From Syntrophales bacterium (GTDB lineage Bacteria; Desulfobacterota; Syntrophia; Syntrophales; UBA2210): a stretch of 32,877 nt of DNA. Under the pieces are notes generated by a model. It was not told where the DNA came from, did not search any database, and saw only the letters and a program-made list of their open reading frames with translations. Position numbers and translations under genes: made by a program. This document shows positions 8,716 through 16,608 of this stretch, in pieces. The DNA is taken from the NCBI GenBank assembly GCA_028715865.1, contig JAQUQY010000001.1:1-32877 (forward strand), given 5' to 3'. Every line of letters starts with the position of its first letter. Positions within the stretch are counted from its first letter, which is position 1.

Positions 8716-10059
8716 TTACAAAGCGGCCTTGATAGCCTGGGTGTCGAGGATTTCGTGGGCGGACCTGATATTCTGATCAATGCCCACCTTTGAACCTCGC
8801 TTCGTCAATTCTTCAGGCAACTGTTCAATCCCGATGTGACCGTCGCCTCGTAAAATAAAGGCCCGCTCAATGACATTCTCCAGCTCCCTGATATTTCCGG
8901 GCCAGTCATGGGCCATGAAAAGCGAGAAGGCTTCCGGTGTCACACCCTGCACTGACTTTTGCTGCAGCCTGTTAAATCGCGCGACAAACTGGGCCGCCAG
9001 GAGAGGAATATCTTCTTTTCGCCGGCGAAGCGGGGGCAATTCAAGACGTACCACGTTCACACGATAATAGAGGTCCTCCCGGAAAAGACCCTGATTCATC
9101 CTGGCCGCGAGATCCCTATTGGTCGCCACAATCACGCGAACATCAGCTTTTTCGGATCTGGTTGATCCAAGGGGCTCAAAGGTTCGCTCCTGAAGTACCC
9201 TGAGAAGCCGGACCTGGAGGGCCGGTGATATCTCGCCTATTTCATCGAGAAACAACGTACCTCCCCGGGCCAGGGCGAAACGGCCGGGCTTGTCACGGTT
9301 GGCGCCAGTAAAGGCTCCAGCCTTGTAGCCGAATAGTTCCGACTCAAGGAGCGTTTCGGGCAGCGCCCCGCAATTGACTGCCACAAAGGGGGAACGGTTT
9401 CGCGGGCTGAGGGAATGAATCGTCCTCGCAACAAGCTCCTTGCCTGTTCCCGTTTCGCCAAGGAGAAGAACGGTGCTGGGGCTTGCGGCAATCGCGGGTA
9501 GAACCTCGAACACCTTCTGCATAAGGGGGCTTCGGCTTGACAGATCACCTACACGGTATTTTCCCTCAAGTTCCTGACGCAGAGCTTCGATTTCCGACAA
9601 GTCCCGGAAGGTCTCCGCCCCGCCGATGACTTCGCCGCGGCCATCCCTAAGCACCGCCGTGGAGATGCTTATTGAAATGCGGTTTCCGTCGGCATCAATA
9701 ATGTATCCTGATTTTCCGATGACAGGTTTGCCCGTCTTCAAGGTTTTCTGAAGCGAGCAGTCTGCCCCGCACATACTGGATCGGAAGACCTCCGAGCAGA
9801 GTCGGCCCAAGGCCTGCTCCCGCGGAACCCCGGTAATCTCTTCGGCTGCCCGGTTGAAGGACGTGACGCGCCATTCCATGTCCACCGTAAAAACACCGTC
9901 AGAGATGCTCTCCAGGATTTCATCCGTCGGAGTACGCATATTCGACACTTTGTTCTTTCTTCCCGTCATAACCGCTTGTTTACCCACGTGTTCCAGGTGC
10001 GTGGATCTTAAAAAATGGTTGCTGTTCTCCCTGCGCCTCTCACGGTTCACCTGCCGCAC
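8716..10059 (-). CDS. Sigma-54-dependent transcriptional activator (PAS sensor plus AAA+ domain), ending prematurely at an in-frame TAA
   Basis: PAS-like N-terminus (ILESISDGVFTVDMEWRVTSFNRAAEEITG). Walker A is LLLGETGTGKE and the GAFTGA loop is YKAGAFTGA, with RELENVIERA near the end of the AAA+ domain. The maximal ORF starts at GTG 10059; ATG 9969 or 9939 is more likely. Confidence 0.85.
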   Translation of the reverse strand: MRQVNRERRRENSNHFLRSTHLEHVGKQAVMTGRKNKVSNMRTPTDEILESISDGVFTVDMEWRVTSFNRAAEEITGVPREQALGRLCSEVFRSSMCGADCSLQKTLKTGKPVIGKSGYIIDADGNRISISISTAVLRDGRGEVIGGAETFRDLSEIEALRQELEGKYRVGDLSSRSPLMQKVFEVLPAIAASPSTVLLLGETGTGKELVARTIHSLSPRNRSPFVAVNCGALPETLLESELFGYKAGAFTGANRDKPGRFALARGGTLFLDEIGEISPALQVRLLRVLQERTFEPLGSTRSEKADVRVIVATNRDLAARMNQGLFREDLYYRVNVVRLELPPLRRRKEDIPLLAAQFVARFNRLQQKSVQGVTPEAFSLFMAHDWPGNIRELENVIERAFILRGDGHIGIEQLPEELTKRGSKVGIDQNIRSAHEILDTQAIKAAL

Positions 10060-10225
10060 CGCCGGTTGTTCGAGCTCACCCTGCTTTGGTTTTTTTCTTA
10101 CAAAATCCCCCTCCTGTTATCGTGCCGGGAGAACTTGGAAGTTCAAAATTTCAAGCATGTAATTGTGTTCTTGCATGATTCTTGGAATTGGTCAATTGTT
10201 GACTAAAAAACGCTTGTCCTGGCAG

Positions 10226-10246
10226 TGAACCGCCCCGGATAGTCCG
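10226..10246 (+). repeat. Solo IS3/IS6110-type terminal inverted-repeat remnant (TGAACCGCCCCGGATAGTCCG)
   Basis: The first 13 nt are identical to the IR at 6091-6103. The next 8 nt resemble the IS6110 right IR as recalled (…GGTGAGTCCGG…). No transposase coding sequence follows. Confidence 0.5.
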
Positions 10247-10374
10247 CTACCCCTTTTTCATCCAGGGAAAAAGCTGCCGGACAAGAAAACTCAAGGGAAA
10301 TAAAACGTAACGGCCGGTAACGGCAGAAACAAGGACAAACAGGAAAAGAGCGTTCAACATCCGGGGTGGGTCAA

Positions 10375-10409
10375 TTTTCGTGATAAAAAGGGATTAGTTT
10401 TCGTGATAA
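10375..10409. repeat. Two direct copies of TTTTCGTGATAA spaced 23 nt start to start
   Basis: Read directly at 10375-10386 and 10398-10409, in non-coding DNA between the activator gene and the csp terminator. Function unknown. Confidence 0.6.
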
Positions 10410-10569
10410 TTGACAGCGGTTATCCTGACAATTACGACCACGGTCAGTAAAAAATGACCCCGGTCTCGTACCGCTCTTCATCCGAAAGGAATTCTCGAAC
10501 TCTCCTTGAGGGCGTGTTTGATGACCGTTAAAGCATACGCGGGACGGTTCAGAGATTGATCTTTGCCGT

Positions 10570-10611
10570 AAAAAAAAGGCACTCACACATGATATTCATG
10601 TAATGAGTGCC
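10570..10611 (-). terminator. Rho-independent terminator of the cold-shock gene
   Basis: GGCACTCA / TGAGTGCC stem with an inner ACATGA/TCATGT extension, followed on the minus strand by eight U. It lies 24 nt after the csp stop. Confidence 0.75.
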
Positions 10612-10634
10612 TGCTTCTGTTCATCTGGCAGACC

Positions 10635-10838
10635 CTAGATGATTTTTACATTCTCTGCTGATGGACCTTTCGCGCCCTTTACAACATCGAAGCTCACGGA
10701 CTGGCCTTCAGTCAAGGTCTTGAATCCACCGGCCTGGATGGCGCTGTAATGCACAAAAACATCACCGCTGCCATCACTCTTCTCGATAAACCCGAAACCT
10801 TTGCCTTCGTTAAACCATTTCACTTTACCTTCTGACAT
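10635..10838 (-). CDS. Cold-shock protein, CspA family
   Basis: 67 aa. [12 protein letters not shown] (RNP-1) and DVFVHYS (RNP-2) motifs. AGGAGG RBS. Confidence 0.95.
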
Positions 10839-11036: not shown

Positions 11037-11195
11037 GGATTATTTTACTAACAGTTATTTTGTAATGTCTAAGAAACCGGTGCTTACGCGGGAAAGTCCC
11101 TGAAACGTCCCGGGTATTAAGGAGCCGTCGTTAATGGATGTTCTTGACCTGCGCTTGCATGCTTTGCCTATATTAGCATGATATTATTAATAAAA

Positions 11196-11224
11196 TGGCG
11201 GAAGTGCATGGGAATCGAACCCAC
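11196..11224. repeat. Distal att repeat: a 29-bp duplicate of the 3' end of tRNA-Sec
   Basis: TGGCGGAAGTGCATGGGAATCGAACCCAC is identical to 16511-16539. Confidence 0.9.
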
Positions 11225-11436: not shown

Positions 11437-12030
11437 TTAGTTTCGCGATATTTCCTCCCGGAATCGACAAAAACGAATGGACAGCTTCAATAAAAAAAGA
11501 TAAAAACCACTTGTCGAGAGTGTAAACAACTTTATTTTTTCGCTCTTTTCCAAGAACACCGCTAATGGCATAGAGTGGATGTCATCGAGCAAAGCTATGT
11601 ATTCATCATCCAATCCCATGCCTTGCGGCAAATAGAATAAAGTGTATACGTGCTGCTTGCGGATAGCATCAAGTTTAGAATCGATTTCGGTTCTTGATAT
11701 TCCGCTATTCTCAAGTACCTCTATGTAGCTACTCAGCGGAATGATTGGTGCGAAAACTATGTTGACTGGCAAGTCTCTTTCATTGTCGGGATCAATATCG
11801 CAACTATTAGAAAGAATTATTCCCCTAACATTACACAATGTTCTACTGCTATATTCAATTAGCTCAAACGAGTTCCAGCCATCTCCCTGAAGGATTTCAT
11901 CTGGGTACAAACGAGTATAGTACATAAAGTTATCAGGGAAACCCTCCAATGCCCTGATGAGATTATTTTTTTGCTCCTGGGTTAAGTAATATGGAATGTA
12001 GTCTTCAATTGTTTCTCTATTTATCTCCAT
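11437..12030 (-). CDS. Hypothetical protein, cargo gene C (197 aa, no recognised domain)
   Basis: Last gene of the AT-rich operon, 17 nt after gene B. Contains ...RGIILSNSCDIDPDNE.... I could find no Walker, nuclease or HTH motif. Confidence 0.6.
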   Translation of the reverse strand: MEINRETIEDYIPYYLTQEQKNNLIRALEGFPDNFMYYTRLYPDEILQGDGWNSFELIEYSSRTLCNVRGIILSNSCDIDPDNERDLPVNIVFAPIIPLSSYIEVLENSGISRTEIDSKLDAIRKQHVYTLFYLPQGMGLDDEYIALLDDIHSMPLAVFLEKSEKIKLFTLSTSGFYLFLLKLSIRFCRFREEISRN

Positions 12031-12047
12031 ACTTGGGCTCTTGTATG

Positions 12048-12386
12048 TTAGTTCACGTAAAGTTTCCCGATGTTTTCATATAGTACTTTCTCAAACTTTC
12101 TTCCCAAAGGTTCCTGATTCGAAAGTAGATTATGGTAGAATTCAGATATTTTCTCCTCAAAAATAGTGTTTTCAGAATAATGTGAATATGTGAATAGATA
12201 TTTATGTGCATCATTAGTTGGGGTATTAGAGAGTGATCTATACCAACTTGCTCCTACTTTTTCCTTTAATTCCTTATAGTTAACATACGGATCATACGTT
12301 ACGGGCGTTTGAGCTGCCATGATACCAGCGACAATGAAAATTGATCCAATTGTACGCGAGAGATGATTAATGCGATATTCATTCAT
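12048..12386 (-). CDS. Hypothetical small protein with an N-terminal membrane anchor, cargo gene B (112 aa)
   Basis: Hydrophobic segment IGSIFIVAGIMAA near the N-terminus. Its start overlaps the stop of gene A by 8 nt (ATGAATGA). Confidence 0.55.
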   Translation of the reverse strand: MNEYRINHLSRTIGSIFIVAGIMAAQTPVTYDPYVNYKELKEKVGASWYRSLSNTPTNDAHKYLFTYSHYSENTIFEEKISEFYHNLLSNQEPLGRKFEKVLYENIGKLYVN

Positions 12387-13131
12387 AAATTGGCCCCAGT
12401 CTTTCTAGTGTTTCAGCTGTAAGACAACTGAAGAACATCTCTTTGTTTGCAGTATGAATATCTTCAAGCTTATCCTCTAGGCGTGTCAGAAAATCATCAA
12501 ATTTCTCGTCTTGCAAATTACATATCGTATCGATATCAATAACCAATCCCTCAGAAATGATCTTCTTATCAACTGATTCAGCTTTAACTGATGACATGAT
12601 TTGAACAGCCTGAATATATATGGTTCGTGGTATTTCAATACGAATTTGAATGTTTTCTTTTTCCAGTTTGTGCTCACCTATTTGTACTTTAAGCTTGACT
12701 GATGATATCTGGTCTTGCAAGCGAGCTGATGGAATAATATCCACGTACTTCATTGAGTAACGATAAACATTTTGGATAGTGCCAACATCAACAAGGATTT
12801 GTGTAGCTTTCAGAATAAATTCCTTAAAATTATTCCACCCCGGATATGGTAATTTACATGCAATCCCGAAGCTCGCATCTCCAATGAGAATGATAAAGTT
12901 GCCCCAAAAAATTCTAGTCAAAGGTGTGTACTGCAGATTTGAATCATTGTCTCGAATTTCTTTAGGAACACTTGCTGCTCCTAATTGCTCAATTTTTTTC
13001 TCGCCTTCCAGATTCTTAAAAAAAATCCCAGGTAATATGTTAGAAGCAGCAACAGAAGATTTAAATCGCATTTCAAAGACTGCATCAATCAATGGTTCCG
13101 CAGTGAGCTTTATAGGTAATTGCGAAGACAT
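12379..13131 (-). CDS. Hypothetical protein, cargo gene A (250 aa), resembles the uncharacterised TIGR04255 family
   Basis: AAGGA RBS 8-9 nt upstream. The N-terminal signature EPLIDAVFEMRF matches my recollection of the TIGR04255 consensus (P-[LI]-x-E-[AV]-x-x-[ED]-[IL]-R-[FV]). This needs an HMM check. Confidence 0.55.
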   Translation of the reverse strand: MSSQLPIKLTAEPLIDAVFEMRFKSSVAASNILPGIFFKNLEGEKKIEQLGAASVPKEIRDNDSNLQYTPLTRIFWGNFIILIGDASFGIACKLPYPGWNNFKEFILKATQILVDVGTIQNVYRYSMKYVDIIPSARLQDQISSVKLKVQIGEHKLEKENIQIRIEIPRTIYIQAVQIMSSVKAESVDKKIISEGLVIDIDTICNLQDEKFDDFLTRLEDKLEDIHTANKEMFFSCLTAETLERLGPIYE

Positions 13132-13272: not shown

Positions 13273-13301
13273 TTCATAATCCTTCTAATGTGTTTTGTCA
13301 A
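13273..13301 (-). promoter_or_regulatory. Weak candidate promoter for the cargo operon (TTGACA - 17 nt - TATGAA)
   Basis: Read on the minus strand, about 140 nt upstream of ATG 13131. The -10 is poor. Confidence 0.25.
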
Positions 13302-13485: not shown

Positions 13486-13755
13486 ATGCCCAAAGAAAAA
13501 GGAGACATGCAGGCAGTAACCATCTGGATCAACAAAGACCTGGTGGCACAGATCGACACACTCGCAGAAAAGGGAGACCTTACACGGAGCAAGCTCATCG
13601 GTAATATCATTGAGGTAGGCGTGGAAGAACTCCAGGTAATGAACAAGCTGGGCATATGGGCGGCGGCCCGGATATTCGAGGATATACGACAAGCGTTGAA
13701 GAATCGTCACAAGAGACGAAAAGCCGCCCAGGAATCAAAGGACCAAGAAGAATAA
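13486..13755 (+). CDS. Ribbon-helix-helix (CopG/Arc-like) DNA-binding protein; possible element repressor or excision factor
   Basis: The N-terminal beta-strand plus two helices (QAVTIWINKDLVAQIDTLAEKGDLTRSKLIGNIIEVG) is a typical RHH pattern. Strong RBS. First gene of the replication/integration module. Confidence 0.65.
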   Translation: MPKEKGDMQAVTIWINKDLVAQIDTLAEKGDLTRSKLIGNIIEVGVEELQVMNKLGIWAAARIFEDIRQALKNRHKRRKAAQESKDQEE

Positions 13756-13760
13756 AAAAA

Positions 13761-13797
13761 GGCAAGCACCCGACTTTGGCCGGTCCCGGTGCTTGCC
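13761..13797. other. 10-bp GC-rich hairpin (GGCAAGCACC / GGTGCTTGCC, 17-nt loop) preceded by A7; attenuator/terminator or candidate Rep origin
   Basis: Read directly. It sits between the RHH gene and the small ORF/rep. The U-tract would be on the minus strand only. Confidence 0.35.
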
Positions 13798-13894
13798 CTT
13801 CCCGAAACCTGAGTGTCTTTCGACAGGCTCAAGCAGTTCAACTCTAACAACCTGCCTGATGCGTGTCAAGGACTCTCGAACACAAGGAGTGTCT

Positions 13895-14137
13895 ATGAGG
13901 ACGCGCAGATACAACCGATATCAGCTCGAGAAACATCAAAAGGCGATTAAAACCATTCTTGCCCTCTTTCCTGGGTCCAGAGTTGTCGACACAGGGGATC
14001 AGGATTGCCCGAGGAAACAACCAAGTTATAGTAAGCCCGCGCCGGGAACCGTAGACAGGGCCCAAGCGGGCGGGTCACGGCCTGTAATGGAAAATTATGA
14101 CCTGTTTGAAGGGGAATCAGATGGGGGTGCTATATGA
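13895..14137 (+). CDS. Hypothetical small protein (80 aa)
   Basis: AAGGAG lies 5 nt before ATG 13895. Its stop overlaps the rep start (ATGA at 14134-14137). No similarity recognised. Confidence 0.4.
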   Translation: MRTRRYNRYQLEKHQKAIKTILALFPGSRVVDTGDQDCPRKQPSYSKPAPGTVDRAQAGGSRPVMENYDLFEGESDGGAI

Positions 14138-15327
14138 CTATCAGGCACCCCGCAAAGGTGAAAATTAACGTCTTATCGTCAGGGTTAGATACGGTTGTTT
14201 TATCATTTGACGTAGATTGGAAGGACAGGCAACTATTTGGATATCTTGAAGAAGTTAAAAAGCTATCACAGGAAGTTAGTTGCGATTATCCTGGTTTTCT
14301 CTCACATTTCAAACCTAATGAAAAATGGCCCTTTCATATCAAGCCGAATGGCACAAAGGGGTATTCCTGGATTCTCGTCAATAATGATTTCACATTCAAG
14401 ATTGCCGACAGGCAAAACCCTGGGCCAAGGCCCAATATGATGGTTGAAATCAGATCAGAGGCCCTATGGCGGTTAGGACCTCAGGAAGCCAAAGAAATCG
14501 CTTACAAGGTCATCCGGGCAAGCCAGGGGAATATTGTTGACGTTAAGCCAAGTCGGGTTGATCTTTGTCTTGATTTCATGGTGCCGGAAAAATACTGGAC
14601 CCAGTCGCTGCTTGACTATGCAGTTACCAGGGCAACGGATTTTACACCCTATTATACTCACAGGAAATTGAACGGAATCAGGATCGGCAAGGGCAACATA
14701 TCAGCCCGTTTGTATGACAAGCCCCTGGAGATCCGACAGAAATCAAAGAAATTCTGGATGTACGATATATGGGGGATTGATGAGGTTCCGCCAGATCAGA
14801 AAATAATCCGTATCGAATTTCAGCTAAGAAGGCCGGTGCTGAAAGAACTCGGCCTGAACTGTGATCGTGACCTAATCAATAAGGCTACCGGTGCCTGGGC
14901 CTATTGTACCGGTGAATGGTTAAAGTTTCAGGATCGGCCGGGATTGCACCACACGCAACGGAGAACATTTGATTGGTACAGGCACATACAGGAGGGCTTT
15001 CAGGGAGCCCAAGATGCAGAACCCCTCATCAGAAACAAGGCTGTGCGAGTTGATAAGAAGCGCCTGCTTCAGCAGATCAATGGATCGATAATATCATTGA
15101 AAGCCATAGAACAGGAGGAACGGGGAATCAATGACAGCGGACCTCTAACAATGCAGGATGCGGTCCTTACCTATGCCCAGGAGATAACGAACCATCAGAT
15201 GGAGTATGAGGATATTCAGGAAAGGTTGAAAAAGAAAAGGGCACGGTATCACCGGGAGCTTTCATTGTCGAAGAATCTAGAAGGTGAGGACATGTACGAG
15301 CTCCGAGAGGCCCAAGAATCATGTTGA
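14134..15327 (+). CDS. Replication initiation protein (Rep_trans / phage-plasmid gene II-like rolling-circle initiator)
   Basis: Motif series SRVDLCLDF, ARLYDKPLEI and IIRIEFQLRR matches the R-x-D-x-x-x-D, Y-D-K-x-x-E and R-[IV]-E-x-x-L-R pattern I associate with PF02486-type initiators. Confidence 0.65.
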   Translation: MTIRHPAKVKINVLSSGLDTVVLSFDVDWKDRQLFGYLEEVKKLSQEVSCDYPGFLSHFKPNEKWPFHIKPNGTKGYSWILVNNDFTFKIADRQNPGPRPNMMVEIRSEALWRLGPQEAKEIAYKVIRASQGNIVDVKPSRVDLCLDFMVPEKYWTQSLLDYAVTRATDFTPYYTHRKLNGIRIGKGNISARLYDKPLEIRQKSKKFWMYDIWGIDEVPPDQKIIRIEFQLRRPVLKELGLNCDRDLINKATGAWAYCTGEWLKFQDRPGLHHTQRRTFDWYRHIQEGFQGAQDAEPLIRNKAVRVDKKRLLQQINGSIISLKAIEQEERGINDSGPLTMQDAVLTYAQEITNHQMEYEDIQERLKKKRARYHRELSLSKNLEGEDMYELREAQESC

Positions 15328-15380
15328 CCCATGCCCTCAAATGTCACATAACCTCTCAAAAGAGAGGGGGTGGCTTTTGC

Positions 15381-16496
15381 ATGAAGGGATCAATCCATTA
15401 TCGGAAAGACCGGAAACGATGGCTTGTCAGGTGGTACCATGAAGGAAAAGCCTACAATATCTATCGCTACAACGGAGAATATTTATATGATAGGAGACTG
15501 GCGGAAAAGCTCTTGTCCTGCATGCAGGCAGACGAAGAAAGAAATGTTTTCCGAATCGAAAAATATCTCTATTCGGCAACGGATGTTGTCCCTTATCTGA
15601 GGAAATGGCTTGAAAGTATATCATCCACCTTATCACCGGCAACACATAAGGATTATCAAAACAGCATAGAAAACCATCTCGCCCCGTGGTTTGATGAAAA
15701 CCCCTTCATGCTCCATGAAATTCAATACGACGTTTTGTGTCGACTCATGAATGACATTAAGAGATCGGGCAAGGGAAAGCTCAATGTCCTGTATTGCTTG
15801 AGAGCCTGCCTGGACTACGCATGGAGATCCGGACGAATACCGGCGATTCCTCCTTTTCCGAAAAGAAAAATGTTCGGGATCGTTGAAAAATCCATAAAGT
15901 GGGTTCGTGAGGACAGGCAAAAGGCGATCATTGAAGCGATTCCCGAAGCGCATCAACCAATCTTCTGGTGGCTCAAATACCACTTGCGCCGACCATCTGA
16001 GGCTATGGCGCTCATGAAGGAAGACTATGATCAGGATGCCGACGTTTTCATTATTAGAAGGGCCTTTTCAAATAAGAAGCTAATTGATCGCACGAAGACG
16101 GGCAAGATTCACATCATCCCCTGTCACCCGGATTTCAAGAAGATGATGGAACGGATGCCCTTAACCTTCTCGCCTTTCATGTTTACAAATCAAACAGGAC
16201 GGCTTGAAGGGAAGCATTACCAGCACGATTACTTGGTTGATCTCTGGAACAAAGCATGTCGGGACGTGGGAGAGTCGATAAACATGTATGCCGGATTGAA
16301 GCATTCTTCGTGCTCGCAGTATGTAAACGAGAAGGGCTTGTCAATTGATGAACTGCAAATGCTGACGGATCACGCACGACGGGAAAGCGTTTTGAAATAT
16401 GCCGCGGTCCAGGCAGAAGCAAAAAGAAAACTCATGGCAAGAGTGGTTTCAATTGGGAACAGAACGGGAACAGAAAAAAAGACAGCCGATGGCTGA
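15381..16496 (+). CDS. int: Tyrosine-type site-specific integrase
   Basis: C-terminal catalytic region ...LRRPSEAMAL (Arg I) ... GLKHSSCSQY ... LTDHARRESVLKY (H-x-x-R ... Y). It lies next to the tRNA att site. ATG 15381 is preferred over the ORF-track start 15321. Confidence 0.9.
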   Translation: MKGSIHYRKDRKRWLVRWYHEGKAYNIYRYNGEYLYDRRLAEKLLSCMQADEERNVFRIEKYLYSATDVVPYLRKWLESISSTLSPATHKDYQNSIENHLAPWFDENPFMLHEIQYDVLCRLMNDIKRSGKGKLNVLYCLRACLDYAWRSGRIPAIPPFPKRKMFGIVEKSIKWVREDRQKAIIEAIPEAHQPIFWWLKYHLRRPSEAMALMKEDYDQDADVFIIRRAFSNKKLIDRTKTGKIHIIPCHPDFKKMMERMPLTFSPFMFTNQTGRLEGKHYQHDYLVDLWNKACRDVGESINMYAGLKHSSCSQYVNEKGLSIDELQMLTDHARRESVLKYAAVQAEAKRKLMARVVSIGNRTGTEKKTADG

Positions 16497-16510
16497 AATT
16501 ACTCATAAAT

Positions 16511-16539
16511 TGGCGGAAGTGCATGGGAATCGAACCCAC
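16511..16539. repeat. Proximal att repeat (the 3' 29 nt of the intact tRNA-Sec)
   Basis: Identical to 11196-11224. Confidence 0.9.
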
Positions 16540-16608
16540 CTGAGAGGTTACTAGCCCCCCACACTGGATTTGAAGTCCAGGAGGCCCACCAGAGACCTTG
16601 GCACTTCC
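16511..16608 (-). tRNA. selC: tRNA-Sec (anticodon UCA)
   Basis: 98 nt: GGAAGTGC...CTGGA-CTTCAAA-TCCAG...GTGGGTTCGATTCCCAT-GCACTTCC-G-CCA. It has an 8-bp acceptor stem, a long variable arm, anticodon TCA (plus-strand tga at 16571-16573) and an encoded CCA. The anticodon arm is identical to E. coli selC as I recall it. Confidence 0.9.

Follow-up and report, generated by a model that had tools for sequence, protein, structure and literature searches.

A mobile three-gene cassette headed by a TIGR04255 protein, a candidate toxin-antitoxin-like system on a tRNA-Sec island of a Syntrophales bacterium

The A-B-C operon and its proteins

We analyzed a stretch of 32,877 nucleotides (hereafter the window) from contig JAQUQY010000001.1 of the Syntrophales bacterium assembly GCA_028715865.1, which carries three adjacent minus-strand genes that we call A, B and C and refer to together as the trio. 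An initial annotation, made from the sequence alone, had proposed that they form an undescribed defense or addiction system carried as island cargo. Family searches, structure predictions and a survey of related loci lend comparative support to this proposal, and we read the trio, with moderate confidence, as a self-contained, mobile tripartite toxin-antitoxin-like or abortive-infection cassette that would serve in phage exclusion or stabilization. Its genes and signals, taken from the list of open reading frames (ORFs) unless indicated otherwise, are as follows:

12379-13131, minus strand: gene A, 250 aa
12048-12386, minus strand: gene B, 112 aa
11437-12030, minus strand: gene C, 197 aa
12386-12379, minus strand: 8-nt A/B overlap ATGAATGA, read from the sequence
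13273-13301, minus strand: possible promoter of A-B-C, TTGACA (13301-13296), 17 nt, TATGAA (13278-13273), by resemblance to the consensus only

These gene coordinates, the 8-nt overlap between A and B and the 17-nt spacing between B and C had all been given in the initial annotation and were confirmed in the ORF list and the sequence. Gene A ends in ...ATT TAT GAA TGA, with its TGA stop lying inside ATGAATGA and the ATG of B opening ATGAATGA, an arrangement that indicates translational coupling and that recurs as a -8 overlap in Pseudomonas phage Dobby, phage VW-6S and most other trio loci. An AAGGA Shine-Dalgarno sequence lies about 8 nt 5' of the ATG of A. The candidate promoter was found by reading the sequence; our promoter scan, which required a T at the last -10 position, did not list it. 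In the source metagenome-assembled genome (MAG) at NCBI, A is annotated as "TIGR04255 family protein", C as "hypothetical protein" and B is unannotated, the B protein of the window being held only in a Logan-derived record.

Gene C, which had been taken for an orphan, is not one, because it belongs to a family of 878 clusters at 50% identity among 1.84 billion representatives. It matches phrog_4575 (E 6.5e-59), a phage family whose function is uncharacterized. The 150 best matches listed are mostly of about 200 aa and cover nearly the full profile length, with no fusion of C among them. We modeled C with AlphaFold2 (mean predicted local distance difference test, pLDDT, 87.4) and compared the model to the Protein Data Bank (PDB) using Foldseek. 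All of the top 50 PDB matches were toxins of the MazF family (MazF, YdcE, MoxT), with probabilities of 0.99-1.00 and target-normalized template modeling (TM) scores of 0.57-0.71. The model thus points to a MazF/PemK-like fold, that is a MazF/CcdB-type SH3-like barrel, with extra helices. The earlier statement that the trio carries no nuclease signature stands at the sequence level, where Pfam and PADLOC returned nothing, and fails at the level of the predicted fold of C.

Gene A had been called TIGR04255-like, and a search with hidden Markov models (HMMs) established it as a full-length member of this NCBIfam family, which has no assigned function (96.6 bits against an NCBIfam cutoff of 30, E 2e-27, model positions 2-252 of 252). 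It also matches phrog_5464 (E 4e-57), a second phage family of uncharacterized function. Since A and C match phage protein families with E-values of about 1e-57 to 1e-59 and have hundreds of homologues, we regard the trio genes as real rather than as chance ORFs. The AlphaFold2 model of A (pLDDT 93.4) consists of two beta-alpha-beta-beta-beta-alpha repeats, and Foldseek matched it to AdoMetDC/prozyme, TBP, poxvirus-type early transcription factor and rolling-circle Rep proteins, the top-match probabilities being high and the TM-scores low (about 0.3). On this model we assign A a TBP-like double fold only and transfer no function to it.

The N-terminal segment of B is hydrophobic (IGSIFIVAGIMAA), as the membrane anchor named in the initial annotation implied, and only moderately so: its best 17-residue Kyte-Doolittle window scores 1.71 in the window copy, for a family median of 1.57. 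A transmembrane helix is therefore just one option, and a signal peptide or a buried helix would be compatible with the sequence as well. Across homologues, this segment is rich in small and hydrophobic residues and is followed by a conserved acidic C-terminal helix with the consensus FE..FY..LL..QE.LG.EFE.VL..NLWDLYE. A B-like ORF was found between A and C in 86 loci. B weakly matches phrog_5728 (E 6e-4) and contains no domain recognized in Pfam, NCBIfam or PADLOC.

Against databases of known families, none of the three proteins had a match in PADLOC-DB v2.0.0 at E-values up to 1 or in Pfam, and NCBIfam returned TIGR04255 for A and nothing for B or C. Searching PDB sequences gave nothing useful, whether the queries were single proteins or profiles, and C in particular had no match by either route.

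Modular cassettes headed by A

One natural variant of the trio shows how its parts go together. The cassette at L121 (10001-11612; also L122 and L123) comprises a gene A followed by genes of 173 aa and 117 aa. The A proteins of L121 and of L061, a locus that bears B and C, are 82% identical. Residues 1-72 of the second L121 gene are 55% identical to the B of L061 (E 2e-22), and the remainder of this gene is unrelated to the C-terminal helix of B. In place of C stands the 117-aa protein, named "UPF0332 family" by JGI, which we take to be a HEPN-type family; Pfam, NCBIfam and PDB searches with this protein gave nothing, leaving its HEPN identity unconfirmed. Because L121 keeps A and the N-terminal 72 residues of B while the C-terminal half of B and gene 3 are replaced together, B is bipartite, with an N-terminal module that accompanies A and a C-terminal module that accompanies the third gene. 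The swap gives a ready hypothesis for which proteins bind each other. The L121 cassette sits as an insert between polA and a gene for a TacA1-like antitoxin.

Other arrangements also begin with A, and we regard A, rather than B, as the invariant first gene ("head") of these cassettes. In one of them A is followed by X1 (190-230 aa), with a C-terminal DGEINFFW...YSFY motif, and by X2 (145-165 aa), with an NPAH motif; A and X1 usually overlap by 8 nt, and the cassette often adjoins a P2-type portal gene (L013 1299-3101, L029 9388-11203, L031 6669-8484, L032 8824-10640, L015, L026 and L028). X1 has a weak match to PDC-M32A in PADLOC (E 2e-7); otherwise X1, X2 and the L003 pair had no family match in Pfam, PHROG or NCBIfam, and the L031 cassette had no match in complete E. 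coli genomes. Another cassette consists of A followed by proteins of 117 aa and 145 aa.

Distribution, genomic context and host island

In order to assess the distribution of the trio, we performed a tblastn search against GenBank phages, which detected A and C together in Pseudomonas phage Dobby (two accessions) and in phage VW-6S, both with the gene order A, B-like ORF, C; a further Pseudomonas phage record had match statistics identical to those of Dobby. The annotation of Dobby gives A as a truncated 123-aa ORF, and that of VW-6S mislabels the B region as "integrase" (46 aa). The Dobby version occurs in at least 1000 Pseudomonas aeruginosa contigs. Scanning IMG/VR with A yielded 38 loci, of which about 23 also carried B and C, and a C-based scan using one genome per species yielded 79 loci, spread over all classes of Proteobacteria, Desulfobacterota, Cyanobacteria, Gemmatimonadota, Acidobacteriota, Nitrospirota, Leptospiraceae, Bacteroidota, Chloroflexi, Coriobacteriia and Bacillota. 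Profile HMMs identified A, B and C as all intact in 74 loci, an almost obligatory co-occurrence. Wherever enough upstream sequence was available, essentially every C was preceded by an A at a distance of about 350 nt and by an intervening B-like ORF; the most distant copies retain this order, and the operon always comprised three genes among the loci examined.

The VW-6S copy of the trio immediately follows cI, shares its strand and precedes int; lambda carries rexAB at this position. In the P2-like Dobby the trio abuts the portal gene, and the corresponding site of P2 is a hotspot of anti-phage systems (Rousset et al., 2022). We then surveyed the flanking ORFs, two per side, at 79 non-redundant loci and found no conserved fourth gene among them. 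The neighbors included integrases (5 + 5), S24 repressors, tail-tube and terminase genes and scattered, unrelated housekeeping genes, so that the surroundings are variable and mobile (phage sites, integrases, tRNA genes, ICE-like regions) and show no conserved housekeeping context. Using an iteratively built integrase HMM, we detected a tyrosine integrase within 10 kb in 11 of 40 well-flanked genomic loci, at 330 nt or less in several, and a tRNA gene lay within about 700 nt in 9 of 57 loci. The G+C content (GC) of the trio was below that of its flanks in 66 of 68 loci (median difference 12.4 points, Wilcoxon p 8e-13).

In Henriciella barbarensis (L079 8520-10685), a 2.1-kb insert lies between 35-nt direct repeats of the tRNA-Met 3' end; we interpret it as a miniature or remnant island, because it holds the trio only, without an integrase. 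In Neisseria arctica (L120 3075-20753), the trio is flanked by two DNA_methylase + HATPase_c_3 pairs and by TraG_N/TraH, in a region that is likely related to integrative and conjugative elements (ICE-like) and rich in likely defense genes. The location in hotspots and mobile islands, together with the patchy distribution, is a generic trait of anti-phage systems and would suit such a role here. A function in the replication or integration of the carrier element was rejected, the trio being present both in phages whose own life-cycle genes are complete and in loci without an integrase.

In the window, the trio is located at one end of an island inserted at tRNA-Sec, delimited and organized as follows:

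11179-11224, strand not assigned: int-distal island end (attachment site, att), the tRNA-Sec 3' end repeated in direct orientation; 46 nt, with 91% identity to 16494-16539
13486-16496, plus strand: island backbone as a whole, divergent from the trio
13486-13755, plus strand: RHH/CopG regulator (RHH_1, E 8e-5)
13793-14137, plus strand: orf114 (ORF list)
14134-15327, plus strand: 397-aa putative replication/endonuclease protein ("rep"; weak PHROG "endonuclease" match, E 5e-8)
15321-16496, plus strand: tyrosine integrase, int (Phage_integrase E 3e-7; phrog_1 integrase E 1.6e-32)
16494-16539: second att repeat copy, covering the 3' end of tRNA-Sec
16511-16608, minus strand: tRNA-Sec, the integration site (ARAGORN; Rfam RF01852, 74.7 bits)

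The island measures 5315 bp between the 46-nt repeats and consists of two divergent operons, the plus-strand backbone and the minus-strand trio. Int adjoins tRNA-Sec and the trio lies at the opposite end, so the int-distal position in a selC (tRNA-Sec) element described in the initial annotation was borne out. So was the AT-richness of the operon, which has a GC of 36.9% (0.369; A 0.363, B 0.345, C 0.387), compared with 0.465 for the island outside the trio and 0.50-0.52 for the chromosomal flanks; given the value for the rest of the island, rep and int are at about 46% GC and not at the 55% first estimated for rep. The 397-aa protein had no match in Pfam or NCBIfam. Two Geobacter MAGs encode homologues with 25-28% identity (L050 6366-7463 and L051 4224-5120), each a few kb away from the trio, which suggests a family of small rep-int elements carrying the trio. 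Within the island we found neither type III antitoxin-like RNA repeats nor any Rfam element. A 67-aa ORF at 10635-10838, about 340 nt beyond the att repeat of the island, is by sequence a CspA-type cold-shock protein, and the island therefore sits between tRNA-Sec and a csp gene.

Interpretation and comparison with known systems

We read the trio as a toxin-antitoxin-type module because C has the predicted fold of the MazF toxins. In the mechanism that we propose, C would be the effector, a divergent MazF-fold toxin probably attacking RNA or another essential target. B would act as a neutralizing adaptor, its acidic C-terminal helix keeping C inactive as the MazE tail does with MazF and its N-terminal module being bound or stabilized by A. 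A would be an invariant accessory component, its synthesis tied to that of B by the 8-nt overlap, and as a chaperone or sensor it would determine whether B remains functional. Phage infection or loss of the element would cause A/B to fail and release C, and the ensuing growth arrest would abort the infection, penalize loss of the element, or both. The picture first drawn, of a sensor coupled to a membrane effector, is not favored by the comparative data.

Several observations weigh against this interpretation. C is not a member of Pfam PF02452 and has no Pfam match even at E-values up to 1, and an hhalign comparison of its profile with MazF/Kid sequences was not significant (E 0.22). We looked for the residues of the MazF RNase site, an Arg in the beta1-beta2 loop and a Thr/Ser. 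The invariant residues of C include Q48, G49, D50, W52, N75, C77 and D78 and not the MazF catalytic pair; in the alignment, read by eye, the candidate Arg position is R/K/Q and the Thr position P/K/R. Since sequence methods miss the link and the invariant residues differ, C would have a MazF-like fold yet be no member of the PemK family, and with the catalytic Arg/Thr positions not conserved in that reading of the alignment, its RNase activity is putative only. A resembles no known chaperone or antitoxin, the TM-scores of its Foldseek matches being low. B lacks the DNA-binding domain of classical antitoxins and might be exported or membrane-inserted, which fits poorly with a cytoplasmic neutralizer. 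Known defense genes are few among the nearest neighbors of the trio and include restriction-modification, MADS and pAgo components. Decay patterns support the interpretation weakly, in that C is usually the broken gene in decayed loci and A was clearly broken with C intact only once (L058); these counts are low, and collecting the loci by means of C motifs has biased them. Finally, the window's own copy deviates at conserved positions: its B ends in NIGKLYVN instead of NLWDLYE, without the conserved W-D, and in its C the near-invariant H186 and H191 are both replaced by Arg (SIRFCRFRE against S.HFCRFHE).

In one decayed locus, from a Methyloprofundus MAG (L101 9253-11188), A and B are intact and C is in two pieces about 1.3 kb apart, separated by a 398-aa opposite-strand ORF (9601-10797), as if an insertion sequence had disrupted the putative toxin gene.

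Among the alternatives, a pure addiction module, which would stabilize its carrier prophage or island by post-segregational killing and have no anti-phage role, has the same toxin-antitoxin-like composition as the cassette that we propose. It would also account for the frequent presence of the trio in very small elements made of an integrase and the trio, or alone between att repeats, where stabilization pays. We nevertheless consider it unlikely: the trio is nearly absent from plasmids, the classic addiction niche, with a C homologue in 1 of 72,556 PLSDB records, and it occupies temperate-phage sites known for exclusion genes. As many toxin-antitoxin modules do both jobs, this alternative does not exclude a tripartite cassette with both functions.

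Superinfection exclusion at the envelope, in which a membrane or periplasmic B would block DNA entry with A and C assisting or regulating, agrees with the signal peptide- or anchor-like N-terminal segment of B in most homologues and with prophage positions suited to exclusion genes expressed in the lysogen. This seems improbable, as the hydrophobicity of B is borderline at the median given above, the N-termini of the second genes of the A+X1+X2 cassettes show no similar segment by inspection, and neither the MazF fold of C nor the joint exchange of the C-terminal half of B with gene 3 would be explained.

We give little credence to a role outside conflict, in which A would be a TBP/Bet v1-like binder working with two partners in a regulatory or ligand-handling module that benefits host physiology or the life cycle of the element. 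TBP-like and helix-grip folds do often bind nucleic acids or small ligands, and NCBIfam and Pfam revealed no recognizable catalytic motif. Such a module would however hardly be expected to be patchy across phyla, AT-shifted, located in phage hotspots and tRNA islands without a conserved neighbor, and to have its third gene replaced by other genes, one of them of the putatively HEPN-type UPF0332 family, and the carrier phages already have their own replication and integration genes.

As for the window's own copy, the deviations of B and C could reflect drift, co-adaptation or early decay and might have impaired it; that it is a decaying passenger which no longer works, as several visibly degraded trio loci elsewhere might suggest, is very unlikely in view of three full-length ORFs, profile scores of 3e-109 for A and 2.5e-94 for C, and intact coupling and Shine-Dalgarno signals.

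Beyond the tripartite toxin-antitoxin-like cassette itself, we tentatively propose a wider reading, in which TIGR04255 proteins would be the common head of many modular three-gene systems, a large unrecognized class with immune or toxin functions. A would act as a switch that senses phage or resembles a chaperone, and the N-terminal module of the adaptor would couple it to interchangeable units of adaptor tail and toxin: the MazF fold in the trio, the UPF0332 protein in L121 and at least two further uncharacterized pairs. Temperate phages and miniature tRNA-targeting elements would have spread these systems over most bacterial phyla. If the trio works as proposed, it would represent a widespread, unnamed defense or toxin system whose proteins are currently annotated as "TIGR04255 family" or "hypothetical", and TIGR04255 would gain its first functional context. 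The module swap further suggests that the family could serve to mark additional effector pairs. The trio is open to direct testing, as the Dobby version is available both on the P. aeruginosa contigs counted above and in a cultured phage.

In agreement with the initial annotation, no known system covered by PADLOC-DB v2.0.0 or by the literature searched was found to explain the trio. Literature searches (Dobby, phiCTX, Pseudomonas P2-like hotspots, MazF-like three-gene systems) returned no description of the trio and no report of its protecting against phage, and the term "TIGR04255" was not found in the literature searched. The trio shares its positions with lambda RexAB, downstream of cI in the lambdoid VW-6S, and with P2 Old/Tin, at the portal/cos hotspot in Dobby, and differs from both in fold and gene number, with no sequence similarity. 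RexAB and all other systems of PADLOC v2, which we take to model RexAB and Old/Tin, were rejected for want of matches.

Rst_3HP resembles the trio in comprising three hypothetical proteins without recognizable domains in a P2-type hotspot (Rousset et al., 2022), but its proteins are of about 340, 370 and 230 aa and have no similarity to A, B or C. Using the sequences of Hp1, Hp2 and Hp3 from E. coli E1114 (Table S2A of Rousset et al., 2022), the best blastp match had an E-value of 0.28 over 12 residues, phmmer gave no significant match, and Rst_3HP was rejected; motifs of A and C were likewise absent from the supplements of that study. Tai was rejected as a single-gene system. In type II Gabija (GajB + GajC; NAR 2026), a validated defense system, the effector likewise has a MazF-like fold with a helical insertion, which provides a precedent, but GajC works with the UvrD-type helicase GajB, and this system was rejected because it needs a helicase and neither a helicase nor an ATPase was found in the trio with Pfam and PADLOC.

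MazEF/PemIK modules are related to the trio through the predicted fold of C, which matched MazF toxins exclusively among the top 50 PDB matches, and through the small upstream protein B, whose acidic C-terminal helix includes an aromatic residue. MazE binds MazF through an acidic tail that also contains an aromatic residue, and MazEF-type modules act in phage exclusion. Unlike MazF, C falls outside PF02452, is about 80 residues longer and has N- and C-terminal helices and a helical insert; B has no AbrB or RHH DNA-binding domain; and a third, larger gene, A, is obligatory, whereas MazEF is a two-gene operon.

Toxin-antitoxin-chaperone (TAC) systems, including CmdTAC, are likewise made of three genes, with one constant component, corresponding to A, and varying toxin-antitoxin units. 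The N-terminal 72 residues of B co-vary with A and its C-terminal half with gene 3 (L121 versus L061), so that the extra, aggregation-prone hydrophobic segment of B travels with A in a manner analogous to the chaperone-addiction region. Unlike in TAC, this segment is N-terminal rather than C-terminal, the genes follow the order accessory-antitoxin-toxin, and A is not SecB-like but a TIGR04255 protein with matches to TBP/AdoMetDC-like folds. The trigger logic that we propose for the trio would be the same as in TAC, built from unrelated parts.

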